A stretch of DNA of 64,000 nucleotides, from assembly GCF_003790525.1 (NCBI RefSeq), contig NZ_CP033635.1. One strand, given 5' to 3'. Source of the DNA: Escherichia coli (GTDB lineage: Bacteria; Pseudomonadota; Gammaproteobacteria; Enterobacterales; Enterobacteriaceae). A program made the translations under genes and the position numbers. The notes beneath the pieces are model-generated. The model saw only the letters and a list, made by a program, of their open reading frames with translations. It had not been told where the DNA came from and did no database searches. Positions 1 to 35,765 of this stretch are shown piece after piece (position 1 is the first letter of the stretch; the number at the start of each line of letters is the position of its first letter).

Positions 1-257
1 TAACATCATTCATCAAAAATATTCTTATCGATGTAGAAAACATCAATGTAAATAGAATGTTTAATTACCTCCCATTCAGAATAGCAATGAGCGTCCATCA
101 TGTTTTTTGATTAGAATCGTATAATAAATGTTGCACTAAAATATTTATAACGAAGTAACAATGCGCACCTCAATACTTAAAGATTGAATGGGCTACCAAT
201 CAATGTGGATACGTATTGACGGGTAGCCAGGAGATTGAAATTACGTTCGGTCAAGAA

Positions 258-1592
258 TCAGAACATACTCACCACAAGAAATCCCAGAAGCACTGAGAAA
301 GCAATAGCCAGTACACCCGGAATAAAGAAAGCATGGTTGAACACATACTTACCAATACGGGTCGTTCCTGTGTCATCCATTTGCACCGCCCCCAGAAGGG
401 TTGGGTAAGTTGGTAACACAAATAAAGCAGACACAGCAGCAAAAGAAGCTACCAGCATGTAACTGTCATCCGGATTCGCTGCAGTAATACCCAATGCAGT
501 CACAATAGCCGGAGTGATAGCTTTGGCAGTTGCAGCCTGTGAATACAGAAGCATCGCAGCCAGGAAAAATACCACAGCCAGAAGAGCTGGATACTGGGAT
601 ACAGTAGTTCTGGCAAGCTCCTTAATTTCTCCTGAATGACCAGATACAAAAGTGTCCCCCAACCATGCCACACCCAGTACACAGATACAGGCAACCATGC
701 CTGACTTGAACACAGAGGAGTCCGCAATCTTGTTTATATCTGCTTTACAGAAAAGGGTAATGAATCCGCCAACCAGTAGCATGAGACTCATAATAGCCGC
801 ATCACGACTAACAACAACGTTATCAATCAGACCCAGCGTCGGGCTAATGGCCGAAGCGTAAAGGACCACCAGGATGACGCCAATAAGGAAAATTGCGACA
901 GATCGTCTGGCATAAGGCTTGAGCTGTTTGTTAACACTCTTTACTGGCGCGCTTACGAGTCCTTTGGAAAGACGCTCCCGGTAAACCGGATCATTGTCTA
1001 ATTTCATGTCAGAAATCAGACTGATTATAAATGCGGTAAGCATGCAACCAACGAATGTGGTAAACAACCATATCCCAAGCAATACTGGATAACTCCACCC
1101 AAAGCCTTCCAGTACGCCAGACATATAGATAACGGCAGCCGATACAGGTGATGCTGTAATTGCAATTTGAGATGATACAACCGCAATTGAGAGCGGACAT
1201 GAGGGCTTAATGTTTTGTTCTTTGGAAACTTCGACAATTACAGGGATCATTGAAAATGCAGTATGTCCCGTACCGGCAAAGATTGTCAGCACATAAGTGA
1301 CAACCGGAGCCAGGTAATTAATATATTTTGGATTTTTACGAAGAATTCGTTCAGCGACCTGAACGAGATAGTCCAGTCCTCCCGCCAGTTGCATGGCCGA
1401 AATAGCAGAAATTACCGATGCAATAATTAGAATCACATCCCAGGGGATATTACCAGGCTTCATATCCAGACAAAGCCCCAGAATCAATACCCCAATGCCA
1501 CCGGCATAACCAATACCAATCCCGCCCATACGGACACCCAAAAAGATTGCCCCCAGCAGAACCACTATCTGAAGAACAGTGATAATATCCAT
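258..1592 (-). CDS. Dcu-family anaerobic C4-dicarboxylate transporter (DcuA/DcuB-like divergent paralog)
   Basis: 444-aa polytopic membrane ORF; N-terminal block (GGIGIG..GVLILG..KPGNIP.DVI) and C-terminal blocks (LLYSQAATAKA, LPTYPTL, QMDDTGTTRIGK) match the DcuA/DcuB family as recalled; differs from K-12 DcuA so treated as a paralog. Confidence 0.85.
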   Translation of the reverse strand: MDIITVLQIVVLLGAIFLGVRMGGIGIGYAGGIGVLILGLCLDMKPGNIPWDVILIIASVISAISAMQLAGGLDYLVQVAERILRKNPKYINYLAPVVTYVLTIFAGTGHTAFSMIPVIVEVSKEQNIKPSCPLSIAVVSSQIAITASPVSAAVIYMSGVLEGFGWSYPVLLGIWLFTTFVGCMLTAFIISLISDMKLDNDPVYRERLSKGLVSAPVKSVNKQLKPYARRSVAIFLIGVILVVLYASAISPTLGLIDNVVVSRDAAIMSLMLLVGGFITLFCKADINKIADSSVFKSGMVACICVLGVAWLGDTFVSGHSGEIKELARTTVSQYPALLAVVFFLAAMLLYSQAATAKAITPAIVTALGITAANPDDSYMLVASFAAVSALFVLPTYPTLLGAVQMDDTGTTRIGKYVFNHAFFIPGVLAIAFSVLLGFLVVSMF

Positions 1593-1747
1593 GATTCTCT
1601 CCCGAATTAGTGAGACACCTTTACCCCTGAGCTCCTCTCAACAAAGGCCTTATGGAATGTATTTTTACAAACATCCGGGCAGAGGACTGATACGTTTTCA
1701 TTCGCGCCATCCCCTGCCGGATCTCCCTTCTTACAGATTCTGAACAA

Positions 1748-3148
1748 TTATTGTTCGAACTTCGGAGCAATCAGATTATCCAGATTGAATGTCTTCTCCC
1801 ATTCTTCCTGTGTGAGTAGCTTACGTTCGACAACCACTATCTGATGGAGGGATTTGCCTGTATGGTATGCTTCGTGCGCCATTTCAGAACACACCTTATA
1901 TCCCAGATGTGGCTTCAGGAGAGTCACAATACCGCAGGAATGCATTACCATCTCTGCAGTTCGATCGGAATTAGCTGTAATGCCATCAATGCATTTAGTT
2001 CGGAGTGTGTTACAGGCATTCGTCATCACCTTGAGTGAGGTGAACAGCGCAAAGGTGATGACCGGCTCCATAACGTTAAGCTCAAGCTGACCAGCAGATG
2101 CCGCCAGCATCACTGTGGTGTCCAGCCCCTGAACCAGGAAGCAAGACTGGTTTGTTACTTCCGGGATAACGGGGTTAACCTTACCAGGCATAATGGAAGA
2201 ACCCGGTTGCAATTGAGGCAGGTTAATTTCAGCCAGGCCGCAACGGGGGCCTGAAGCAAGCAGTCGAATGTCATTACAAACCTTGGTAAGCTTCACAGAG
2301 AGGCTCTTCATGGCCGAACTGAGTGCAACATATGCACCACAGTCGCTTGTGGCAGCGATGAGATCTTCACTGTTCCTGAAATTAATGCCTGTGATCTGGG
2401 CCAGATATTTCACGGCTAAAGCGGGATAATCCGGGTGAGCGGTAACACAGGTACCAATCGCAGTAGCACCAAGGTTTACAACCCGCAGGTGTTCCTGTGC
2501 ATTACGGATGACCCGAATTTCATCATTAATTGTAAAACCCCAGCCATGGAACTCCTGGCCGAGAGTCATTGGCACTGCATCCTGCAGGTGAGTACGTCCC
2601 ATCTTGAGCACTGTGCTGAACTCGTCAGCCTTTTTGTAGAATGCTCCTACGAGGTGTTCAACAGCTTCAAGCAATACATTGCTTCGCAGCAGCAATGCCA
2701 GATGTAATGCTGTCGGATATGTATCATTGGTGGACTGACCAAAATTAGCATGGTCGTTTGGCGAAACGCGTTTGTAATCCCCTTTAACGCTACCAAGTTT
2801 TTCTGCAGCAAGATTACAAATCACTTCATTGCAGTTCATATTGGTTGACGTTCCGGCTCCCCCCTGAAGCCAGTCGGTCACAAACTGTTCCCGGTACTTA
2901 CCATCAATTAATTGGTCGCAAGCCCAGATTAAAGCATCCGCAACATCAGCAGGAATTGTACCTAACTCCTTATTAGCCATCGCAGCTGCTTTTTTCACAT
3001 AACCGAAGGCAATGATGAAGAAGGGCTCCTGACTCATTGGCATTTCAGTAATATGGAAATTATCCTCACCACGAAGTGTCTGAACACCATAATAGCAATC
3101 ATCCGGAACTTCACGCTCACCAAGGAAATCGCTTTCAATACGAGACAT
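1748..3148 (-). CDS. aspartate ammonia-lyase / class II fumarase family protein (copy A)
   Basis: 466-aa ORF; MSRIESDFLGEREVPDD..YYGVQTLRG N-terminus, GGAGTSTNMN and GSSIMPGKVNPVIPE signature blocks typical of aspartase/fumarase C family; near-identical inverted copy at 30835-32235. Confidence 0.88.
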   Translation of the reverse strand: MSRIESDFLGEREVPDDCYYGVQTLRGEDNFHITEMPMSQEPFFIIAFGYVKKAAAMANKELGTIPADVADALIWACDQLIDGKYREQFVTDWLQGGAGTSTNMNCNEVICNLAAEKLGSVKGDYKRVSPNDHANFGQSTNDTYPTALHLALLLRSNVLLEAVEHLVGAFYKKADEFSTVLKMGRTHLQDAVPMTLGQEFHGWGFTINDEIRVIRNAQEHLRVVNLGATAIGTCVTAHPDYPALAVKYLAQITGINFRNSEDLIAATSDCGAYVALSSAMKSLSVKLTKVCNDIRLLASGPRCGLAEINLPQLQPGSSIMPGKVNPVIPEVTNQSCFLVQGLDTTVMLAASAGQLELNVMEPVITFALFTSLKVMTNACNTLRTKCIDGITANSDRTAEMVMHSCGIVTLLKPHLGYKVCSEMAHEAYHTGKSLHQIVVVERKLLTQEEWEKTFNLDNLIAPKFEQ

Positions 3149-4013
3149 AATTTTCTAACTCCATTTTTCGAAAACAATGTGACAATAACAAATTGTTTTC
3201 ATAAAACACTTATCCAACATTAAGAATGAATACTTATAATCACCAGATGACATAACCATTACCATCTAATGGAATATATTTAAACTAATAAGATAAACTT
3301 AAAACGTGATATCAAGCACATTTTTATAACGTTAAAATTAGTGGGTTATTTAGCAATCAAATATAACCAGTAAAAGCCCGAAATATGCAGATAACGCTGC
3401 ACTAATATGATTAAGATCAAAAAAAACAATTCCGCAATCAAACTTATTATTAATGCTGATTTTTTAAATCATGATTAAGTAGAACTATTTTATAATAGCA
3501 TCCCGGTTTGGTCACATCCTTCAGAAAAACAACCTGTTTACCACCATAGAAAATCTATATCTCTGCTAGGTTTTCCAGCGTTGTAGATATAGTCACTCAT
3601 GGTGATTCTTATTAAGATAAGAGTTTTTACACGGGAATGTTATTGCACTTCTAATTGATAAATCTTGGAATAGAGTAGAAAACGTAATGTTTCCACTCCA
3701 TCTTCCGCTTTAATGGTTTGTAATTTGAGTTAGATCATGGATTTTAACATCCATTATGATTAATTATTTTTAGATGATTTGATCACTAAATCGTCTTTCA
3801 GGGTGTAACGGCATTAATCATCACAAGCTAAAAAAACGCCATACTGTAATGGAGTCTGTATTTTATGTTCAATCATGCAAAGGCTCTTCATAATTATCAT
3901 TTCTCTCTTGGAAAAATGACAGCCTGAACATAGCATAAATTCACGTTCTTCAGAGTCAGAAGGTGTTAATAAACTGTCCCTAAAATCTGGAAAATGTTGA
4001 AGAAGGCATCTCA
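3149..4013. promoter_or_regulatory. AT-rich divergent intergenic region between aspartase-like copy A (minus) and pepT-like gene (plus); likely carries both promoters
   Basis: about 865 bp without convincing ORF, strongly AT-rich, flanked by divergently oriented start codons. Confidence 0.3.
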
Positions 4014-5270
4014 ATGGATATTGTCGAACGCTTTATCAATTATACAAAAATTAATACCACTACCTCACGAGAAAACGGCGCAAAAGGGATCATGCCTTCA
4101 TCTCCTGGTCAGATGAAACTTGCGAAATTGTTGGTGAGTGAACTTGAAGCATTGGGTATGGAGGATATTATTCTCAGAGAGAATGCTATCGTAACAGCAA
4201 CACTCCCTGCAAATACTGACGAAACAATCCCCGTCGTTTCCTTTTTTGGACATCTGGACACCAGTGCCGAACAGACAGCCGATACAAAAGCGCAACGATT
4301 ACCTTATAATGGGGGCGATCTCTGTCTGAACCCTGAACTGAATATTTATTTGCGTGAGAGTGAATTCCCGGAGCTCAAAAATTATATTGGCGATGACCTT
4401 ATAGTGACAGATGGTACCAGCCTTCTGGGGGCCGATGATAAAGCGGCGCTGGCGGCCATAATGAACGCACTTCAATTTCTGATTTCTCATCCTGAAATCA
4501 GGCATGGAGAAGTTAAAGTTGGGTTTGTGCCAGATGAAGAGCAGGGGTTACGGGGGGCCAAAGCCTTCGATGTTTCAGAGTTTGGCGCAGATTTTGGCTA
4601 CACTCTGGATTGCTGCGGTATTGGAGAATTTGTTTACGAAAACTGGAATGCGGGTGATGCAGAAATTATCTTTACCGGCCAGTCTGCACACCCTATGTCA
4701 GCGAAAGGCAAGCTTAAGAACTCTCTTTTGATGGCTCACAAATTCATTTCGATGTTGCCAGGAGGAGAAGCGCCTGAATATACAGAAGGACGCGAAGGCT
4801 ATTATTGGGTGAAACAGTTACAGGGAAACAGTGCCAGAACTGTACTAAAACTGGATATACGAGATTTCAGCGAGGAAGGATATCACGCCCGGAAGACATT
4901 TGTACGCCAGCTTGCAGAAAGTGCTTGTGCATTATGGGGAGAAGGAAGCGTGATCTGCCAACTGAGCGATCGGTACGCCAATGTCTTTAACAGTCTGCAG
5001 GGAGAGGGGCATTATCCCATCGACATTGCCCTGCGAGCTTACCAACGATGTGGTATTACTCCGACACCGGTGGCGATGCGTGGAGGATATGATGGCGCTG
5101 TTCTTTCACAAAAAGGATTACCCTGCCCGAACATTTTTACCGGCGCACATAATTTCCATTCTATCTATGAATATCTTCCAGTCCGTTCACTTCGGGCGGC
5201 AAGTGATGTGGTTATTGCCATCATTCAGGAGACATTCAATGGGTTCACCACAGGGAATCGTGAGTCATGA
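4014..5270 (+). CDS. peptidase T-like tripeptidase (M20B family metallopeptidase)
   Basis: 418-aa ORF; blocks FFGHLDTS, TDGTSLLGADDKAA, VGFVPDEE, IFTGQSAHP resemble PepT/M20 family as recalled. Confidence 0.8.
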   Translation: MDIVERFINYTKINTTTSRENGAKGIMPSSPGQMKLAKLLVSELEALGMEDIILRENAIVTATLPANTDETIPVVSFFGHLDTSAEQTADTKAQRLPYNGGDLCLNPELNIYLRESEFPELKNYIGDDLIVTDGTSLLGADDKAALAAIMNALQFLISHPEIRHGEVKVGFVPDEEQGLRGAKAFDVSEFGADFGYTLDCCGIGEFVYENWNAGDAEIIFTGQSAHPMSAKGKLKNSLLMAHKFISMLPGGEAPEYTEGREGYYWVKQLQGNSARTVLKLDIRDFSEEGYHARKTFVRQLAESACALWGEGSVICQLSDRYANVFNSLQGEGHYPIDIALRAYQRCGITPTPVAMRGGYDGAVLSQKGLPCPNIFTGAHNFHSIYEYLPVRSLRAASDVVIAIIQETFNGFTTGNRES

Positions 5271-8243: not shown

Positions 8244-9275
8244 ATGAATAAAATAAAAGGTATAACAGTAATGGCAGCCTTCGCATTGTGTATAGGATAT
8301 GCTCACGCTGAATCTCAAACGCCAATACGCCTTGTAATTCATGGTGGAGCTGGCACCATAACAAAAGATACTATTACACCTGAACAAGAAAAACAATACA
8401 GAGAAAAGTTAACAGATGCACTAAATGCTGGGTATGCTGTGCTTAATAGTGGAGGAAGTAGCCTTGATGCTGTTCAGCGTGCAATTAATGTTATGGAGGA
8501 CTCTCCCCTCTTCAATGCTGGAAAAGGCGCTGTCTTTACTCATGATGGCAAAAACGAACTTGATGCTGCAATTATGGATGGAAAAACCAAAATGGCCGGA
8601 GCCGTTGCAGGAGTGACGACCATAAAAAACCCTATAAACGCTGCTTATGCAGTTATGACTAAAAGCCCTCATGTATTAATGATCTCTAATGGTGCGGAAC
8701 TATTTGCAAAAGAGCAAGGCTTAGTTATGGTTGAGCCAGCATATTTCAAAACTGATTTCCGTTGGCAACAGCTACAGAACGCTTTAAAAGACGAAAAAAT
8801 AACCCTTGATCATAATGGTAAATCAGCATCTCTTTTACTCCCCCCAAAGAACTACGACTATAAATATGGAACTGTTGGAGCAGTCGCGTTGGACAAAGAT
8901 GGTAATCTGGCAGCTGGAACATCAACAGGAGGTATGACAAATAAACGTTACGGACGCGTAGGTGACTCGCCAATAATTGGAGCAGGAACCTATGCCGATA
9001 ATAATACCGTTGCTGTTTCTGCTACAGGTACTGGAGAAATGTTTATTAGAACTTCAACTGCATACAATATTGCTGCTCAGGTGAAATATAAAAATACACC
9101 ATTGAAAGAAGCAGCTCAAAATGCGCTTGATGAAGTTAAAAACATTAATGGTAGTGGTGGTGTCATTGTTCTAGATAAGAATGGTAATTATACTATGAGT
9201 TTCAATACAGAAGGGATGTATCGTGGAACTATCGGCAACGATGGTAAAGCTATCGTATCAATTTATGAACAATAG
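8244..9275 (+). CDS. isoaspartyl peptidase / L-asparaginase family Ntn-hydrolase with N-terminal signal peptide (periplasmic)
   Basis: RBS AAGGAGG 7 nt upstream of ATG 8244; signal peptide MNKIKGITVMAAFALCIGYAHA; blocks GTVGAVALD.DGNLAAGTSTGGMTNK and GTGE.FIR match IaaA/plant-type asparaginase family. Confidence 0.85.
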   Translation: MNKIKGITVMAAFALCIGYAHAESQTPIRLVIHGGAGTITKDTITPEQEKQYREKLTDALNAGYAVLNSGGSSLDAVQRAINVMEDSPLFNAGKGAVFTHDGKNELDAAIMDGKTKMAGAVAGVTTIKNPINAAYAVMTKSPHVLMISNGAELFAKEQGLVMVEPAYFKTDFRWQQLQNALKDEKITLDHNGKSASLLLPPKNYDYKYGTVGAVALDKDGNLAAGTSTGGMTNKRYGRVGDSPIIGAGTYADNNTVAVSATGTGEMFIRTSTAYNIAAQVKYKNTPLKEAAQNALDEVKNINGSGGVIVLDKNGNYTMSFNTEGMYRGTIGNDGKAIVSIYEQ

Positions 9276-14676: not shown

Positions 14677-15708
14677 TCACTTTTTCTCGGGTTGAACTTC
14701 ATGCCCTTGGCAGCCACACGACTCTCCTGTTCGTAAATAAAACTCAAATTCAACACGGCGAACTTCTCCATCCCAATTTTTCAGCATGTCAATTGCCGCA
14801 CGGGCCATCTTATCGACAGGTTGTCGAACGGCGGTTAAAGAAGGGACGTTATAAGCCGATTCTTGTGTTGCGTTAAAGCAGACCAGCGCAACATCTTCAG
14901 GAACGCGCAGCCCATGTTCTGCCAAAGCGCGTAAACAGCCGAGAGCCTGTTGTTCATTTGTCGCGAACAGGGCGCGTGGCAGTTGGTGCTCAAGCATGCG
15001 TTTTGTCGCCTCGTAACCGCCGGCGCGGGTATAGTTGGTCGAAAAAATCCATGAGGGATTGACCACTAACGATGAGGCTTCCAGCGCCTGCTGCCAGCCC
15101 CGGATACGATCCTGAGTATTCAGCATTTCACGCGGGCCGCAGATGATGCCGATGTCGCGGTATCCGTGATCAATAAGATGTTGTGTTACCTGCATCGCCG
15201 CCAGTTGTTCATCAACCTGGATAACGCTGACGTTAAGCCCAGGATCCACACGATCGAGCATGACGCAGGGGGTACCGCTCTCCTGAATCAAATTGATATA
15301 AGGATGGCGATCAACACTGGTGTAGATCAGCCCGTCAACCTGGCGGTGTAGCATATTATTAATGAGTTCACGTTCACGGCAGCTACTATCGCCTGCGTCG
15401 CCCAGCAGGAGTACTTTGCCATCAGCAAAGGCTTCGTGTTGCAGGGCATGAGCCATAGAGGCGATAAACGGGTTCGAGATGTCCGGAGCGACTAGCCCAT
15501 AAGTTTGCGTACTCCCTGAAGCCAGCGCACGCGCGATGCCATTGGGTCGATAACCGGTTTTCTTAATGGCCTGTAGTACACGTTGTCGGGTCGCTTCGGC
15601 AACGGGGCGCGGGCCATTATTAATAACGTAACTAACGACAGCGACGGATGTCCCTGCTTCTTTTGCCACGTCAGAACGTGTTACGCGTTGTGAATGTGAT
15701 TGAGTCAC
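14677..15708 (-). CDS. LacI-family transcriptional regulator
   Basis: N-terminal HTH (VTRSDVAKEAGTSVAVVSYVINN) and periplasmic-binding-protein-like effector domain. Confidence 0.85.
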   Translation of the reverse strand: MTQSHSQRVTRSDVAKEAGTSVAVVSYVINNGPRPVAEATRQRVLQAIKKTGYRPNGIARALASGSTQTYGLVAPDISNPFIASMAHALQHEAFADGKVLLLGDAGDSSCRERELINNMLHRQVDGLIYTSVDRHPYINLIQESGTPCVMLDRVDPGLNVSVIQVDEQLAAMQVTQHLIDHGYRDIGIICGPREMLNTQDRIRGWQQALEASSLVVNPSWIFSTNYTRAGGYEATKRMLEHQLPRALFATNEQQALGCLRALAEHGLRVPEDVALVCFNATQESAYNVPSLTAVRQPVDKMARAAIDMLKNWDGEVRRVEFEFYLRTGESCGCQGHEVQPEKK

Positions 15709-18135: not shown

Positions 18136-18470
18136 CTGAGAAAGAGGTAAACAGGATGGCTAAAAATACTCGTTTTTCCCCCGAAGTCCGTCAACGGACA
18201 GTTCGTATGGTTCTGGAAAATCAGGGCGAATATGACTCCCAATGGGCAGCAATTTGTTCCATCGTCCCAAAGATTGGCTGTACACCGGAGACTCTGCGTG
18301 TCTGGTGTACAACCAGCATGAGTGGGATACCGGGGGCGGTGATGGTGGACTCACCACCGCTGAACGTCAGCGTCTGAAAGACGCTGGAGCGTGAAAATCG
18401 TGAACTGCGCCACAGTAACGATATCCTTCGCCAAGCTCTTATTTTGCGAAGGCGGAGTTCAACCACCCCT
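18136..18470 (+). pseudogene. IS3-family (IS629/IS1203-like) orfA fragment, frameshifted and truncated
   Basis: [50 protein letters not shown] matches IS629-like OrfA as recalled; continuation is in another frame. Confidence 0.65.
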
Positions 18471-18804
18471 GGAAACTGTTGCCAGTTCATTTTCGCCAGG
18501 CAGCACGCTACCTGCTGGCAGTTCGCCGCACAGGATGCGCTCGGCAAGATGCTGAGTAACAGATTCGGAGAGACTAGTCTGCACAATTTTCATTGCATTT
18601 CCTAGCTAAAAAACGTCACAGTGATGAGCCATATAATAAGCTAAATAACAGCAAACTTACTAATTGTGAAGCAGGTGAACTCCACCCCCTAGTCAGTTCT
18701 TATCGTTGCTGGATACCCTCAAAGCAGTGTAATGCTATCCAGAATAGGCATGCTTAAGGAAGAGCTCAAGGGTAGAACCCCGACTTCGGCATCGCAGAGG
18801 ATAC

Positions 18805-20536: not shown

Positions 20537-20869
20537 ATGATCTCACTACCATCCGGTACCCGTATCTGCCTCATTGCCGGGGTAGCTGATATGCGTAAAT
20601 CCTTCAACGGACTGGGAAAACAGGGTCAACATGTGCTGAATTATAATCCCTTCTTCGGCCACCTGTTTATCTTCCGAGGCCGACGGGGTGACACTGTTAA
20701 AATACTCTGGGCTGATGGTCTGTGTCTTTTCACCAAGCGCCAGGAGGAAGGCAATTTATCTGGCTTGCGGTACGTGACGGCGGGGTATCCTTTACCCGCC
20801 CGCAGCTGGCAATGCTCCTTAGTAAGCTGGGCTAGCGTCAGCCAAAAACATCACGCCTTAACGCGCTGA
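20537..20869 (+). pseudogene. IS66-family TnpB (orf2) fragment, degenerate
   Basis: MISLPSGTRI..AGVADMRKSFNGL..GHLFIFRGRRGD..K.LWADGLCLFTKR matches IS66 TnpB; C-terminus diverges. Confidence 0.7.
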
Positions 20870-21082
20870 CAATGTGGTAAAAATATCATAGCCGGATTAT
20901 AAAAACGGTCATGAATCAGAACTACCTCATTCGCATCGCTGACGCTGGAAAAGCTGCTGTCTGAGTACTAAGTCGTTGAAAGCATACTCTTCTTTCCCTC
21001 CTGTTTAGCGCCTGATATCCCTTTTCCATTTCTGCCCGACGCATGTCATTTTTTTATGCATTGTTCTTTTTGTGATCTAAAT

Positions 21083-21112
21083 TGTAGTACAGTAATATAA
21101 GCTTGTACTACA
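21083..21112. promoter_or_regulatory. putative DgoR operator half-sites (TTGTAGTACA and TTGTACTACA) in the dgo promoter
   Basis: two near-palindromic TTGTA-N-TACA motifs 20 bp apart about 110 bp upstream of dgoR; GntR/FadR-type operators have this form. Confidence 0.5.
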
Positions 21113-21221
21113 TTACGCACACGGCAAACGCGAACGTTATCACGCTGGTACTACAAAGTTGCCGCGTTATGCATCGATCGGGGTAAAGTAGAGAAGAACA
21201 TACAGAGCACAAGGACTCTCC

Positions 21222-21911
21222 ATGACTCTCAATAAAACCGATCGCATCGTCATTACGCTGGGTAAACAGATCGTTCACGGCAAATACGTGCCAGGCTCGC
21301 CGCTTCCGGCTGAGGCGGAGCTCTGTGAGGAGTTTGCAACCTCGCGCAACATCATCCGTGAGGTGTTCCGTTCGCTGATGGCGAAGCGGCTGATTGAAAT
21401 GAAACGTTATCGCGGCGCGTTTGTGGCACCGCGTAACCAGTGGAATTACCTCGACACTGACGTACTGCAATGGGTGCTGGAAAACGACTACGACCCACGA
21501 CTTATCAGTGCCATGAGCGAAGTGCGAAATCTGGTGGAACCGGCGATTGCCCGTTGGGCAGCAGAGCGCGCGACTTCCAGCGATCTGGCGCAGATTGAAT
21601 CGGCGCTGAACGAGATGATTGCCAACAATCAGGACCGCGAAGCGTTTAACGAAGCGGATATTCGCTACCACGAGGCGGTGCTGCAGTCGGTACATAATCC
21701 GGTGTTACAGCAACTTAGCATTGCGATCAGTTCGCTGCAGCGGGCGGTATTTGAACGAACCTGGATGGGTGATGAGGCCAACATGCCGCAAACGCTCCAG
21801 GAACATAAGGCGCTGTTCGATGCGATACGGCATCAGGACGGCGATGCGGCAGAGCAGGCGGCGCTTACCATGATCGCCAGCTCGACACGAAGGTTAAAGG
21901 AAATCACATGA
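21222..21911 (+). CDS. dgoR: D-galactonate operon repressor (GntR/FadR family)
   Basis: 229 aa, GntR HTH plus FCD domain; first gene of the conserved dgoRKADT arrangement. Confidence 0.9.
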   Translation: MTLNKTDRIVITLGKQIVHGKYVPGSPLPAEAELCEEFATSRNIIREVFRSLMAKRLIEMKRYRGAFVAPRNQWNYLDTDVLQWVLENDYDPRLISAMSEVRNLVEPAIARWAAERATSSDLAQIESALNEMIANNQDREAFNEADIRYHEAVLQSVHNPVLQQLSIAISSLQRAVFERTWMGDEANMPQTLQEHKALFDAIRHQDGDAAEQAALTMIASSTRRLKEIT

Positions 21912-22786
21912 CAGCTCGCTACATCGCAATTGACTGGGGATCGACCAATCTGCGCGCCTGGCTTTATCAGGGCGACCACTGCCTGGAGAGCAGGCAATCA
22001 GAAGCAGGCGTCACGCGCCTGAACGAAAAATCTCCGGCTGCGGTGTTAGCAGAAGTGACGGCCGACTGGCGTGAAGAAAATACGCCAGTGGTGATGGCAG
22101 GAATGGTCGGCAGCAATGTCGGCTGGAAAGTTGCGCCGTATTTATCTGTTCCTGTCCGTTTTTCGTCTATTGGCGAACAATTAACGTCGGTTGGCGACAA
22201 TATCTGGATTATTCCCGGATTATGCGTTTCTCATGACGATAACCACAATGTGATGCGCGGCGAAGAAACACAATTGATCGGCGCGCGTGCTCTGGCTCCT
22301 TCCTCTCTTTATGTTATGCCCGGAACCCATTGCAAATGGGTGCAGGCCGATAGCCAGCAAATCAACGATTTTCGCACCGTAATGACCGGTGAATTACATC
22401 ATTTACTGTTAAATCACTCATTGATTGGCGCAGGTTTGCCGCCGCAGGAAAACTCTGCCGATGCCTTCGCGGCTGGCCTTGAGCGTGGCCTTAATGCGCC
22501 CGCCATATTGCCGCAGCTTTTTGAAGTTCGCGCCTCGCATGTGCTGGGAACGCTTCCCCGCGAACAGGTCAGCGAATTTCTCTCTGGTTTGTTGATTGGC
22601 GCAGAGGTTGCCAGTATGCGCGACTATGTGACCCATCAACACGCCATCACCCTTGTCGCCGGAACATCGCTGACCGCGCGCTACCAGCAAGCCTTTCAGG
22701 CGATGGGTTGCGACGTGGCGGTGGTGGCGGGCGACAAGGCATTTCAGGCTGGTATAAGGAGCATCGCTCATGCAGTGGCAAACTAA
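21908..22786 (+). CDS. dgoK: 2-dehydro-3-deoxygalactonokinase
   Basis: 292 aa; start overlaps dgoR stop; position and size as in the E. coli dgo operon. Confidence 0.88.
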   Translation: MTARYIAIDWGSTNLRAWLYQGDHCLESRQSEAGVTRLNEKSPAAVLAEVTADWREENTPVVMAGMVGSNVGWKVAPYLSVPVRFSSIGEQLTSVGDNIWIIPGLCVSHDDNHNVMRGEETQLIGARALAPSSLYVMPGTHCKWVQADSQQINDFRTVMTGELHHLLLNHSLIGAGLPPQENSADAFAAGLERGLNAPAILPQLFEVRASHVLGTLPREQVSEFLSGLLIGAEVASMRDYVTHQHAITLVAGTSLTARYQQAFQAMGCDVAVVAGDKAFQAGIRSIAHAVAN

Positions 22787-23387
22787 ACTCCCGCTGATCG
22801 CCATTTTGCGCGGCATTACGCCCGACGAGGCGCTGGTGCATGTTGGCGCGGTGATTGACGCCGGGTTCGACGCAGTTGAAATCCCGCTGAATTCCCCACA
22901 ATGGGAGCAGAGCATTCCCGCCATCGTTGATGCGTATGGCGACAAGGCGTTGATTGGCGCAGGTACGGTACTGAAACCTGAACAGGTCGATGTGCTCGCC
23001 AGGATGGGCTGCCAGCTCATCGTTACGCCCAATATCCATAGTGAAGTGATCCGCCGTGCGGTGGGCTACGGCATGACCGTTTGCCCCGGCTGCGCGACGG
23101 CGACCGAAGCCTTTACCGCGCTCGACGCGGGCGCTCAGGCGCTGAAAATATTTCCGTCATCGGCTTTTGGTCCGCAATACATCAAAGCGTTAAAAGCGGT
23201 ATTACCACCGGACATCGCAGTCTTTGCCGTTGGCGGCGTGACGCCAGAAAACCTGGCGCAGTGGATAGACGCAGGTTGTGCAGGGGCAGGCTTAGGCAGC
23301 GATCTCTATCGCGCCGGGCAGTCCGTAGAACGCACCGCGCAGCAGGCAGCAGCATTTGTTAAGGCGTATCGAGAGGCAGTGCAATGA
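22770..23387 (+). CDS. dgoA: 2-dehydro-3-deoxy-6-phosphogalactonate aldolase
   Basis: 205 aa KDPG-aldolase-family protein in dgo operon context. Confidence 0.88.
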
Positions 23388-24532
23388 AAATCACCAAAAT
23401 TACCACGTATCGTTTACCTCCCCGCTGGATGTTCCTGAAAATTGAAACCGATGAAGGCGTGGTCGGCTGGGGCGAGCCCGTGATCGAAGGCCGCGCCCGT
23501 ACGGTGGAAGCGGCAGTTCACGAGCTGGGTGACTATTTGATTGGTCAGGATCCATCGCGCATCAATGACTTATGGCAAGTGATGTATCGCGCCGGATTTT
23601 ATCGTGGAGGTCCAATCCTGATGAGCGCCATTGCCGGGATCGACCAGGCGTTATGGGATATCAAAGGCAAAGTGCTGAATTCGCCGGTCTGGCAACTGAT
23701 GGGCGGCCTGGTGCGTGACAAAATTAAAGCCTACAGTTGGGTCGGCGGCGATCGTCCGGCGAATGTTATCGACGGAATAAAAATCCTGCGCGAAATCGGT
23801 TTTGATACCTTCAAACTGAATGGTTGTGAAGAACTGGGGCTAATTGATAACTCCCGCGCGGTAGATGCGGCGGTCAACACCGTGGCACAAATTCGTGAAG
23901 CTTTTGGCAATCAGATTGAGTTTGGTCTTGATTTCCACGGTCGCGTCAGCGCGCCGATGGCGAAAGTACTGATTAAAGAACTGGAACCGTATCGCCCGCT
24001 GTTTATTGAAGAGCCGGTGCTGGCAGAACAGGCCGAATACTACCCGAAACTGGCGGCACAAACGCATATTCCACTGGCGGCGGGTGAGCGCATGTTCTCA
24101 CGTTTCGATTTTAAACGTGTGCTGGAGGCGGGTGGTATTTCGATTCTGCAACCGGATCTCTCCCACGCAGGCGGTATTACCGAATGCTACAAAATTGCCG
24201 GAATGGCAGAAGCCTATGACGTGACCCTTGCGCCGCACTGTCCGCTCGGACCGATTGCACTGGCAGCTTGCCTGCATATCGACTTTGTTTCCTATAACGC
24301 CGTACTTCAGGAACAAAGTATGGGCATTCATTACAACAAAGGCGCGGAGTTACTCGACTTTGTGAAAAACAAAGAGGACTTCAGCATGGTCGGCGGCTTC
24401 TTTAAACCGCTAACGAAACCGGGCTTAGGCGTGGAAATCGACGAAGCTAAAGTTATTGAGTTCAGTAAAAATGCCCCGGACTGGCGTAATCCGCTCTGGC
24501 GTCATGAAGATAACAGCGTAGCAGAGTGGTAA
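23384..24532 (+). CDS. dgoD: D-galactonate dehydratase (enolase superfamily)
   Basis: 382 aa; enolase-superfamily blocks; start overlaps dgoA stop. Confidence 0.9.
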
Positions 24533-24651
24533 TTCCTGCCACGTAAGCCCCTCATCGGGCACTAAAACAGCAATACAAAAATATAACCCTCTGTAAATTA
24601 CAGGGCATGGTGAGCGGCTTCGCTATGCCCAAAATCAGGAGAAAGCTCGCT

Positions 24652-25944
24652 ATGGATATTCCCGTTAATGCAGCAAAGCCGGGGCGTCGGCGTTATCTGA
24701 CGCTGGTGATGATCTTTATTACGGTGGTCATTTGTTATGTTGACCGCGCTAACCTGGCCGTGGCTGCCGCCCATATTCAGGAAGAGTTCGGCATTACCAA
24801 AGCGGAAATGGGCTATGTATTTTCGGCCTTCGCCTGGCTTTATACGCTATGTCAGATCCCCGGCGGTTGGTTTTTAGATCGCGTAGGTTCACGCGTGACT
24901 TATTTTATTGCGATATTTGGCTGGTCAGTGGCGACGTTATTCCAGGGCTTTGCCACGGGATTAATGTCATTAATTGGTCTGCGCGCGATAACCGGTATTT
25001 TCGAAGCGCCCGCTTTCCCGACCAATAACCGGATGGTGACCAGCTGGTTCCCGGAACATGAACGCGCTTCTGCCGTTGGTTTTTATACGTCTGGTCAGTT
25101 TGTCGGTCTGGCGTTTCTGACTCCGCTGCTGATCTGGATTCAGGAGATGTTGAGCTGGCACTGGGTGTTCATTGTCACCGGTGGTATCGGCATTATCTGG
25201 TCGCTGATTTGGTTTAAGGTTTATCAGCCGCCGCGCCTGACCAAAGGCATCAGCAAAGCTGAACTGGATTACATTCGTGATGGCGGCGGTCTGGTGGATG
25301 GTGATGCGCCGGTGAAAAAAGAGGCACGTCAGCCGTTAACAGCCAAAGACTGGAAACTGGTGTTCCATCGTAAACTGATCGGCGTCTATCTTGGACAATT
25401 TGCGGTGACTTCTACACTGTGGTTTTTTTTGACCTGGTTCCCGAACTATTTAACCCAGGAAAAAGGAATCACGGCGCTGAAAGCAGGCTTTATGACCTCG
25501 GTACCATTCCTCGCGGCGTTTGTCGGCGTCCTGCTCTCTGGCTGGGTCGCGGATCTGCTGGTACGTAAGGGCTTTTCACTGGGCTTTGCGCGTAAAACGC
25601 CGATTATCTGCGGCTTGCTGATCTCCACCTGCATTATGGGCGCTAACTACACTAACGATCCGATGATGATTATGTGCCTGATGGCGCTGGCATTCTTCGG
25701 CAACGGTTTTGCTTCGATTACCTGGTCGCTGGTCTCTTCTCTGGCACCGATGCGCCTGATTGGTTTAACCGGTGGCGTATTTAACTTTGTTGGCGGTCTG
25801 GGCGGCATCACCGTTCCGCTGGTGGTGGGGTACCTGGCGCAGGGTTACGGTTTCGCACCTGCACTGGTTTATATCTCCGCCGTCGCGTTGATTGGCGCGC
25901 TCTCTTACATTCTGATGGTGGGCGATGTGAAGCGCGTTGGATAA
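24652..25944 (+). CDS. dgoT: D-galactonate:H+ symporter (MFS, anion:cation symporter family)
   Basis: start at [16 protein letters not shown] with AGGAG RBS; 430 aa MFS transporter. Confidence 0.88.
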
Positions 25945-26030
25945 TCTCTTATCTGAGGAAGCCCTTTTTTCTCATACCTGTGCTGAACAGATAGAAATAT
26001 TCAGTAACCATCTCACCTGGTGGGAAGAAA

Positions 26031-26770
26031 TAAATATCCTCCGGCATAGCCGGAGGTTTTTCAAATGCGCCTATAAGGCTCTCTTACCAGCCGCGCCCTA
26101 ACAGGCGCACACGATCTGACATTTGCATCCAACTTCGTTACTCACGGTCCATAAACGCGCTGCCCAGGTAGGGAATCGATAACTGCTCTCCCATTTTATC
26201 CTCTTCAAGCTGGTGCTTTATGTAATCCTGTATCTTCGCCGTGTTCTTACCCACCGTATCGACTTAGTACCCACTGCACCAGAACTCCCTGTTCCTGTAT
26301 TTGAATTTCAAATCACCAAACTGCTCGTAAAGCATCAGACTGCTTTTCCCTTTCAGATATCCCATAAAGCCGGATGCGCTCATTTTGGGCGGGATCTCCA
26401 CAAGCATATGGATATGATCTGCACAGCACTCAGCTTCAAGAATCCGTACGCTTTTCCACTCACACAGCTTTCTCAAAATACTGCCTGTTGCTCTACGCTT
26501 CTCTCTGTAGAACACTTGTCTTCGGTATTTTGGCGCAAAAACTATGTGATATTTACAGTTCCATCGGGGTGCGCTAGCTCTTTTCGTTCCCCATTGGGTC
26601 CCCCTTTTGATTTTTTGTTTGACACTTGCTGTTGCCATACCGCAAGGTGTTTTAACAAATCAAAAGAGGTTTTAATAACTGGCTCAAAACTGAAAGCTTT
26701 CCGGAACCCCCAGCCTGGCTGGGGAGCTGTGCACAAAAAAGCACCTCCACAAACAGGAGGTGCAATTCGA
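26031..26770 (-). mobile_element. IS200 (IS200/IS605 family) element with characteristic left-end hairpins; boundaries approximate
   Basis: TnpA Y1-transposase ORF; left-end terminator hairpin GCACCTCC..GGAGGTGC plus T-run (26735-26763) and second hairpin CCCCAGCC..GGCTGGGG (26707-26725); no terminal inverted repeats, as expected for IS200. Confidence 0.8.
26138..26638 (-). pseudogene. tnpA: IS200 transposase TnpA (HUH/Y1) with in-frame nonsense codon (TAA at 26264-26266)
   Basis: WNCKYHIVFAPKYRR..ILEAECCADHIHMLVEIPPK matches IS200 TnpA; ORF stops at GY* and the same frame continues VDTVGKNTAKIQDYIKHQLEEDK to the natural stop at 26138. Confidence 0.8.
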
Positions 26771-30612: not shown

Positions 30613-30834
30613 TAGAATCATAATTTTCATTCTTTATGGAAGTAGTTACAGAGTTACTATTTGATAATTAGTCAGGCAGTTAATCTGCATTCAGTTACTG
30701 ACTGTCAGAAGAATTCTGACAGATTGATATCACATGTTATTTCAATGATGTAAGAATTCAAATTCCGAGAGCATAGCTCCGGTTAAACAATTTGTTATTG
30801 TCACATTGTTTTCAAATAATGGAGTTAGAATATT

Positions 30835-32235
30835 ATGTCTCGTATTGAAAGCGATTTCCTTGGTGAGCGTGAAATTCCGGATGATTGCTATTATGGTGTT
30901 CAGACACTTCGTGGAAAAGATAATTTCCATATCACTGAAATGCCAATGAGTCAGGAGCCTTTCTTCATCATTGCCTTCGGTTATGTGAAAAAAGCAGCTG
31001 CGATGGCTAATAAGGAGTTAGGTACAATTCCTGCTGATGTTGCGGATGCTTTAATCTGGGCTTGCGACCAATTAATTGATGGTAAGTACCGGGAACAGTT
31101 TGTGACCGACTGGCTTCAGGGGGGAGCCGGAACGTCAACCAATATGAACTGCAATGAAGTGATTTGTAATCTTGCTGCAGAAAAACTTGGTAGCGTTAAA
31201 GGGGATTACAAACGCGTTTCGCCAAACGACCATGCTAATTTTGGTCAGTCCACCAATGATACATATCCGACAGCATTACATCTGGCATTGCTGCTGCGAA
31301 GCAATGTATTGCTTGAAGCTGTTGAACACCTCGTAGGAGCATTCTACAAAAAGGCTGACGAGTTCAGCACAGTGCTCAAGATGGGACGTACTCACCTGCA
31401 GGATGCAGTGCCAATGACTCTCGGCCAGGAGTTCCATGGCTGGGGTTTTACAATTAATGATGAAATTCGGGTCATCCGTAATGCACAGGAACACCTGCGG
31501 GTTGTAAACCTTGGTGCTACTGCGATTGGTACCTGTGTTACCGCTCACCCGGATTATCCCGCTTTAGCCGTGAAATATCTGGCCCAGATCACAGGCATTA
31601 ATTTCAGGAACAGTGAAGATCTCATCGCTGCCACAAGCGACTGTGGTGCATATGTTGCACTCAGTTCGGCCATGAAGAGCCTCTCTGTGAAGCTTACCAA
31701 GGTTTGTAATGACATTCGACTGCTTGCTTCAGGCCCCCGTTGCGGCCTGGCTGAAATTAACCTGCCTCAATTGCAACCGGGTTCTTCCATTATGCCTGGT
31801 AAGGTTAACCCCGTTATCCCGGAAGTAACAAACCAGTCTTGCTTCCTGGTTCAGGGGCTGGACACCACAGTGATGCTGGCGGCATCTGCTGGTCAGCTTG
31901 AGCTTAACGTTATGGAGCCGGTCATCACCTTTGCGCTGTTCACCTCACTCAAGGTGATGACGAATGCCTGTAACACACTCCGAACTAAATGCATTGATGG
32001 CATTACAGCTAATTCCGATCGAACTGCAGAGATGGTAATGCATTCCTGCGGTATTGTGACTCTCCTGAAGCCACATCTGGGATATAAGGTGTGTTCTGAA
32101 ATGGCGCACGAAGCATACCATACAGGCAAATCCCTCCATCAGATAGTGGTTGTCGAACGTAAGCTACTCACACAGGAAGAATGGGAGAAGACATTCAATC
32201 TGGATAATCTGATTGCTCCGAAGTTCGAACAATAA
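30835..32235 (+). CDS. aspartate ammonia-lyase / class II fumarase family protein (copy B)
   Basis: 466 aa, differs from copy A at about 2 residues (V14I, E28K); about 50 bp of upstream sequence is also shared. Confidence 0.88.
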   Translation: MSRIESDFLGEREIPDDCYYGVQTLRGKDNFHITEMPMSQEPFFIIAFGYVKKAAAMANKELGTIPADVADALIWACDQLIDGKYREQFVTDWLQGGAGTSTNMNCNEVICNLAAEKLGSVKGDYKRVSPNDHANFGQSTNDTYPTALHLALLLRSNVLLEAVEHLVGAFYKKADEFSTVLKMGRTHLQDAVPMTLGQEFHGWGFTINDEIRVIRNAQEHLRVVNLGATAIGTCVTAHPDYPALAVKYLAQITGINFRNSEDLIAATSDCGAYVALSSAMKSLSVKLTKVCNDIRLLASGPRCGLAEINLPQLQPGSSIMPGKVNPVIPEVTNQSCFLVQGLDTTVMLAASAGQLELNVMEPVITFALFTSLKVMTNACNTLRTKCIDGITANSDRTAEMVMHSCGIVTLLKPHLGYKVCSEMAHEAYHTGKSLHQIVVVERKLLTQEEWEKTFNLDNLIAPKFEQ

Positions 32236-35006: not shown

Positions 35007-35765
35007 ATGAATAACACCAAAAAATCACTAAAGGTGCTCTTTATTGGAGAATCCTGGCATATTCATATGATTCATTCAAAAGGATATGACAGTTTTACCT
35101 CAAGTAAATATGAAGAAGGTGCGACCTGGTTACTCCAATGTCTGAAAAATAGTCAGGTAGATGTCACCTATATGCCGGCACATACGGTACAAATTGCCTT
35201 CCCTGAAGATGTGGCACAGTTAGAACAATATGATGCCATCGTTATTAGTGATATTGGTAGTAATACTTTCCTGCTACAAAATGATACTTTTTATCAGCTT
35301 CGCATAAAACCAAACGCTCTCGAACTGATTAAAGAATATGTGAATAACGGTGGTGGGTTATTGATGATTGGCGGCTATCTCTCATTCATGGGAATTGAAG
35401 CAAAAGCCAATTATAAAAATACAGTTCTGGCTGATGTGCTCCCGGTTACGATGTTAGATGGTGACGATCGTGTCGAAAAACCAGAGGGTGTTATTGCACA
35501 GCCATCACAACCTGACCATCCGGTTATTAAAGGGTTCTCTGAATATCCTTTTTTCCTAGGTTATAACCGGGCGATCGCTAAAGAAAATGCTGAGGTGGTA
35601 TTAACAATAAACAACGATCCATTACTGGTCTTTGGTAACTATCACAACGGGAAAATAGCCTGCTTTATGAGTGACTGTTCACCGCACTGGGGTACACAGC
35701 AGTTTATGTCCTGGCCGTTCTATACCGCGTTGTGGGTAAATATACTGACTCATATTGCAAGATAA
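35007..35765 (+). CDS. hypothetical protein, possibly class I glutamine amidotransferase-like fold
   Basis: 252-aa ORF directly after the kinase gene; assignment from weak pattern only (LLMIGGY, CFMSDCSPHW). Confidence 0.45.
   Translation: MNNTKKSLKVLFIGESWHIHMIHSKGYDSFTSSKYEEGATWLLQCLKNSQVDVTYMPAHTVQIAFPEDVAQLEQYDAIVISDIGSNTFLLQNDTFYQLRIKPNALELIKEYVNNGGGLLMIGGYLSFMGIEAKANYKNTVLADVLPVTMLDGDDRVEKPEGVIAQPSQPDHPVIKGFSEYPFFLGYNRAIAKENAEVVLTINNDPLLVFGNYHNGKIACFMSDCSPHWGTQQFMSWPFYTALWVNILTHIAR

Follow-up and report, generated by a model that had tools for sequence, protein, structure and literature searches.

A second, island-borne dgoRKADT operon in Escherichia coli carries the complete DgoR regulatory region

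Introduction

In Escherichia coli K-12, the dgo element sits between yidX and cbrA, and DgoR binding, the effector of DgoR and class II activation by CRP have all been established there (PMC6003448; PMC11705089). Sort-Seq together with DNA-affinity purification mapped a DgoR site of this promoter to positions −140 to −110, counted from the start codon (PMC6003448), and the operators IR1 and IR2 go back to Singh 2019, as summarised in two later papers, in which the K-12 IR1 oligonucleotide is CTAAATTGTAGTACAACAATAT (PMC11705089; PMC12288454). Binding of DgoR and its release by D-galactonate were demonstrated with the K-12 allele (PMC11705089; PMC12288454; PMC6003448). The same promoter contains a class II CRP site, with TGTGA within −160 to −140 from the ATG (Belliveau 2018, PMC6003448), a weak wild-type −10 element, TACATT, at about −110, overlapping RNA polymerase sites inferred in the stretch between IR1 and IR2, and a further RNA polymerase site at −30 to −70 from the ATG (PMC6003448). 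As operators, both repeats are already known: their prediction dates from 2015 at the latest, and the experimental demonstration followed in 2018–2019.

For the native locus only, Suvorova 2015 predicted three DgoR sites of E. coli b4479, TTGTAGTACAA, TTGTACTACAT and TGGTACTACAA (PMC4494728, S1 File); the experimentally shown DgoR sites are two, and the third box is not one of them. The dgo promoter described here has the same three-box architecture, except that the first site ends in G. Operators of the FadR subfamily (TKGT-N3-ACMA; FadR–DNA structure 1HW2, the template in PMC11705089) are of the same inverted-repeat type, with one dimer per repeat and 3 nt between GT and AC, whereas the boxes studied here form a tandem array along one helical face, with distances of 21 and 43 bp, and overlap a class II CRP promoter. 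With the K-12 element, our locus shares the 10-bp operator cores, the 21-bp spacing, the distance to the ATG, the CRP half-site, TACATT, the leader and the DgoR protein; it differs in its place, being located in an IS-rich island beside yeeA/sbmC as the second copy in the genome.

Results

The window, i.e., the whole 64-kb stretch of DNA that was analysed, contains two TTGTA-N-TACA near-palindromes 5′ of dgoR, as the first-pass annotation had noticed, although its start coordinate of 21083 fell one base late, the first T being at 21082. Direct reading of the sequence places the 10-bp cores at 21082–21091 (TTGTAGTACA) and 21103–21112 (TTGTACTACA), starting 140 and 119 nt 5′ of the dgoR ATG at 21222 (−140 to −131 and −119 to −110). 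Taken as 11-bp operators on the + strand, IR1 occupies 21082–21092 (TTGTAGTACAG; K-12 counterpart TTGTAGTACAA), at −140 to −130 relative to the ATG, and IR2 occupies 21103–21113 (TTGTACTACAT), at −119 to −109, where it overlaps the −10 hexamer TACATT (21109–21114); across the region the window reads TTTTGTGATCTAAATTGTAGTACAGTAATATAAGCTTGTACTACATTACGC. The spacer between them (21093–21102, + strand) is AT-rich, fixed in length but free in sequence, and contains a −10-like TATAAG at 21096–21101.

A search of both strands of the entire window for exact TTGTASTACA returned only 2 matches, which are the cores of IR1 and IR2. Shuffled windows contained a mean of 0.22 such matches and reached two or more in 4 of 100 cases, a count that is blind to the 21-bp separation and to the placement 140 and 119 nt 5′ of the dgoR ATG. 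Being the only exact matches in 64 kb, and given their spacing and their position 5′ of dgoR, the two sites are non-random and rightly placed, and they fall exactly where the K-12 experiments locate the DgoR operators IR1 and IR2. A 9-bp core, TGTAGTACA, at 15572–15580 was taken as a chance occurrence; it lies inside a LacI-family coding region.

The comparison with the K-12 dgo promoter proposed in the first-pass annotation revealed conservation at the level of cores, spacing and distance to the ATG, which are the same in both promoters. IR1 agrees with K-12 in 10 of 11 positions (the last base is G) and IR2 in 11 of 11. The substitutions are AC to GT at 21092–21093 and T to C at 21102, together with differences at 21116, 21118 and 21138, all three located downstream of the −10 hexamer but ahead of the third box. 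The change at 21092 is an A to G replacement of the outermost base of IR1 (position 11) and represents the sole operator change of the island copy, converting the perfect 11-bp palindrome of K-12, TTGTAGTACAA, into the imperfect TTGTAGTACAG.

Of 11 E. coli alleles chosen to span the identities observed, 10 keep the IR1 core unaltered, and all 11 keep IR2 with TACATT; the exception is the native promoter of EC67, whose IR1 reads TTGTAGTGCA. The IR1–IR2 spacer varies in these alleles, and the third box and almost the entire leader are invariant. Position 11 of IR1 is G in both island alleles and A in 10 of the 10 native E. coli alleles sampled. The promoter type of the window (...CAGTAATAT) occurs in 76 genomes, and a sister island type (...CAGCAATAT) was found in ESBL_DR28. 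For Shigella flexneri, the operator is given as TTGTAGCGCAA (Suvorova 2015 supplement, entry DgoR_SFL; PMC4494728), and this species and EC67, as natural operator mutants, are candidates for a partly derepressed dgo. The spacer hexamer aligned to 21096–21101 is the consensus TATAAT in the native allele of the island lineage (record L004, about 8453–8458) and in HB42, but TATAAG in K-12 and in the island copy; with TATAAT in this spacer, one of the overlapping promoters could be stronger.

Three elements that were absent from the first-pass annotation complete the promoter, namely the CRP half-site TGTGA, the −10 TACATT within IR2, and one more box of the DgoR type. The core of the CRP site spans 21071–21086 on the + strand (TGTGATCTAAATTGTA), with the left half TGTGA at 21071–21075 (−151 to −147 from the dgoR ATG) and a degenerate right half that overlaps IR1. 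The centre of this core (TGTGA-N6-TTGTA) is at 21078.5, and adding 41.5 gives 21120, 6–7 nt past TACATT. This geometry fits class II CRP activation, with a putative transcription start near 21120 that follows the published architecture; the CRP site is then at about −41.5 and overlaps the −35 region, the class assignment itself being taken from PMC6003448. The TACATT inside IR2 is part of this D-galactonate-inducible, CRP-dependent promoter. A generic sigma-70 scan did not detect the dgo promoter, which is expected for a weak CRP-dependent promoter and is no counter-evidence. Within the CRP site, just ahead of IR1, a GATC occupies 21074–21077. The dgoR CRP site of Salmonella also contains a GATC, which is hemimethylated there, and dgoR of this genus shows an ON/OFF heterogeneity that depends on Dam (PMC7708049).

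The third DgoR-type box (21146–21156, + strand; TGGTACTACAA) is a one-mismatch match to the operator motif, with its centre 43 bp from that of IR2, at −76 to −66 from the dgoR ATG. Compared with TKGT-N3-ACMA, IR1 (TTGT-AGT-ACAG) and IR2 (TTGT-ACT-ACAT) lack the final A, and the third box (TGGT-ACT-ACAA) is the sole box of this allele with the full consensus. Further downstream, a probable weak promoter at 21159–21189 (+ strand) could be composed of a −35-like TTGCCG (21159–21164) and a −10-like TAAAGT (21184–21189), an assignment of hexamers made in this analysis. The element GGTAAAGTAG, nearly invariant in 24 species among the matches listed, probably holds the −10 of this downstream promoter. 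An RNA element behind the conserved leader and third box was considered and rejected, with no Rfam match and a fold z-score of −0.04.

Conservation beyond E. coli was assessed by scanning a single genome of each species for the pattern TGTASTACA-N(8-16)-TGTASTACA, which matched at least 120 loci; the species set is a sample, and Salmonella and Klebsiella were covered only via the 2015 supplement. The motif pair was found 5′ of a DgoR ortholog (85–96% amino acid identity) in at least 23 other Enterobacterales species, and a 12-nt gap with an ATG 136–142 nt after IR1 was shared by 23 of the 23 DgoR-linked matches listed. The distance between the IR1 and IR2 centres is therefore 21 bp in the window, in K-12 and in at least 23 other species, in a scan that permitted gaps of 8–16 nt. 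While the cross-species conservation of the IR cores follows from the construction of the search pattern, the fixed spacing over a free spacer sequence, TGTGATC, TACATT, the third box and GGTAAAGTAG were not imposed by it. Among the matches listed, all 23 other species retain the CRP half-site, TGTGATC occurs in 21 of 24 Enterobacterales upstream regions, the third box 42–44 bp after IR2 in all 24 species, and A at IR1 position 11 in 22 of 24. Enterobacter sp. Cy-643 has G at this position, as in the window, and the corresponding position of IR2 is a non-A base (T) in every species among the matches listed and in the 2015 supplement.

These data bear on two other explanations of the palindromes and of the allele. 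Since TGTA-N-TACA palindromes are common GntR-family operator cores in many phyla, and the genome scan also gave many unrelated matches with other spacings, the palindromes might be chance occurrences or the sites of another regulator. Nevertheless, there are just two exact matches in 64 kb, they fall at the mapped DgoR position and are identical in their cores to the K-12 operators, and the same spacing recurs in every DgoR-linked match listed, so that this explanation is effectively refuted and retains hardly any probability.

The second explanation accepts the operators and proposes that the island copy is regulated differently, in that the A to G change in IR1 (plus C to T at 21093 in the subgroup of the window) would weaken DgoR binding and make the operon leaky, partly constitutive or responsive at a lower D-galactonate threshold. 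The G at IR1 position 11 is island-specific among the E. coli sampled, it abolishes the 11-bp symmetry of K-12 and departs from the TKGT/ACMA consensus, and, given that it falls in the ACMA box, the affinity of IR1 could be lower in the island allele. Moreover, a partial loss of repression by DgoR speeds the growth of natural isolates on D-galactonate (PMC12288454), and a leakier copy could be favoured. However, IR2 works with T at the corresponding position in every species, Enterobacter sp. Cy-643 shares the G, and the 10-bp core and all remaining elements are unaltered. Because of the T of IR2 in all species and the one Enterobacter with G, we think that the effect of the replacement is small; we infer that the island allele acts like that of K-12, and a regulation different from K-12 appears improbable.

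The operon of the window is a second, diverged dgoRKADT copy in an IS-rich island and not the native locus. BLAST against the native locus delimits a duplicated dgo segment of 4,998 bp at 20963–25960 (+ strand), whose left edge falls 17 nt short of the yidX start codon and whose right edge follows the dgoT stop codon by 16 nt; with this left limit, all of the known regulatory region travelled with the copy. Native alleles align to query positions 1–4998 only, and the similarity shared with other E. coli sets in at window position 20963 (there query position 364), right after an IS66 remnant. The copy is 96.94% identical to the resident native locus (record L004, 8311–13310) over 5,000 BLAST columns, and no spread-sampled native allele is more than 97.8% identical to it. 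Identities of 96.9% to the resident copy and of at most 97.8% to native alleles indicate an old rather than a recent transfer or duplication.

Out of 5,426 complete genomes, about 200 share the junction between IS66 and dgoR; SMS-3-5, MS6198 and ECONIH1, which belong to phylogroup F, are among them. Every junction-bearing genome listed has two places that match the promoter, and one of these genomes, NZ_AP022161.1, contains an ordinary dnaA-...-yidA-yidX-dgoRKADT-cbrA arrangement at 8.5 kb. Given an intact native locus in the same lineage and two promoter places per genome, the window copy is the second one; its flanks are IS66 and IS200 remnants instead of yidX and cbrA, and it is not the sole copy. 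That the second place in FDAARGOS_497 was a mere IS66 copy was considered and dismissed, as a 71-bp operator-only query also gave two places and the native locus is seen in NZ_AP022161.1. The literature searched yielded no description of a second dgo copy.

The first gene of the operon is its cognate, intact dgoR (21222–21911, + strand), which encodes a GntR/FadR-family repressor of 229 aa (WP_000174305.1). The protein has no amino acid difference from those of K-12 and of the resident native copy over 10–16 nucleotide differences. dgoK, dgoA, dgoD and dgoT (21908–25944, + strand) are likewise intact, without internal stops and of native lengths, each departing from its resident native counterpart by 5–6 amino acids, and the divergence of the five genes is mostly synonymous. 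A 44-aa GntR-family fragment at 18459–18593 was ruled out as a dgoR remnant.

Consistent with the IS-rich context given in the first-pass annotation, ISEc31, a GroEL fragment and a truncated IS66-family tnpB are found to the left of the operon, and an IS200/IS605 remnant to the right. The truncated IS66-family remnant (tnpB pseudogene and tail; 20537–20962, + strand) forms the left junction, according to the annotation of the identical stretch in FDAARGOS_497. The island is a mosaic that ends at yeeS-yeeT-cbeA-cbtA, followed by the core genes tmaR, yeeA and sbmC. Between the upstream IS66 remnant and the dgo promoter, no + strand terminator was found, and read-through transcription that bypasses the promoter is possible. 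Just past the dgo segment and adjoining the IS200/IS605 remnant, there is a strong hairpin followed by a T-run at 26037–26065 (CCTCCGGCATAGCCGGAGGTTTTT), which is probably the terminator of the island operon, replacing the native dgoT/cbrA junction.

In such surroundings, the operon might be no more than a decaying passenger, silent or driven by read-through from the IS remnant, with motifs kept only by descent; pseudogenes and IS fragments abound nearby, and an upstream + strand terminator was not detected. Such decay is nevertheless very hard to reconcile with five genes that are intact at about 3% nucleotide divergence, with the 16 nucleotide and 0 amino acid changes that separate dgoR from the resident native copy and indicate purifying selection, and with an arrangement kept in about 200 genomes of varied hosts, and we consider it highly improbable.

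Two further features of the island were observed. A 1,451-bp inverted duplicate with 99.3% identity (1748–3198 and 30785–32235) spans aspartate ammonia-lyase genes, each beside a C4-dicarboxylate transporter gene, and the dgo-containing part of the island lies between its two copies; in FDAARGOS_497, the left aspA copy carries a frameshift. This genome, the closest complete one among the matches listed, has one additional IS4 and one additional IS2 compared with the window, at about 18617–18628 and 35736–35741, which points to a sister strain as the source of the window and to recent IS activity in the island.

Discussion

The first-pass annotation had proposed that the dgo operon kept its native regulation although its surroundings are remodelled. 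A retained regulation is supported, as the operator cores match those of K-12 and the whole known regulatory region is present together with an identical DgoR; the word native is not, as the operon is a second copy in an island and not the native locus. The claim is better phrased as a second, island-borne dgo operon that carried its complete regulatory region along. Since this region is retained and the DgoR protein is identical, regulation of the window operon by DgoR is very likely. We hold it highly probable, from comparison with the K-12 system, that a three-box, CRP-dependent promoter was copied together with dgoRKADT, and that the control of the island operon follows K-12, with DgoR as the repressor and D-galactonate as the inducer.

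In the proposed mechanism, one DgoR dimer would occupy each box when D-galactonate is absent. With a putative start near 21120, the centres of IR1 and IR2 would be at about −33 and −12, respectively. As IR1 overlaps the −35 region and the right CRP half-site, and IR2 the −10 TACATT, bound DgoR would keep out CRP as well as RNA polymerase. The third box, which faces the same side of the helix, possibly assists in repression. Upon binding of D-galactonate, DgoR would be released, and cAMP–CRP could then activate the transcription of dgoRKADT. Given the same DgoR protein and near-identical boxes, one repressor pool should control both the native and the island operon, and the second copy would mainly add gene dosage.

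The operators themselves add nothing new, and the useful result is the corrected context. In strains with this island, the D-galactonate operon and dgoR are each present twice, both operons being complete and probably co-regulated, which matters for annotation and engineering; a single dgoR or dgo knockout in them will consequently not give the K-12 phenotype. D-galactonate use and dgoR mutations are reported to be recurrently selected in gut colonisation experiments (for example, PMC7064181 and PMC9509342), which lends a natural dgo duplication a modest interest with regard to dosage and to cross-talk in regulation. It might further be speculated that the lineage fixed a horizontally acquired second dgoRKADT as an adaptation that raises gene dosage or primes the cells for using D-galactonate in the gut, with a shared repressor pool and slightly easier derepression, though we regard this scenario as rather unlikely. 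The duplicated operon is best seen as a small and checkable side-finding.

At the native dgo site of E. coli O157:H7 and some others, about 400 records cover only about 5% of the dgo segment, namely its two ends beside cbrA, and O157:H7-type genomes therefore appear to have lost dgoRKADT at this site.
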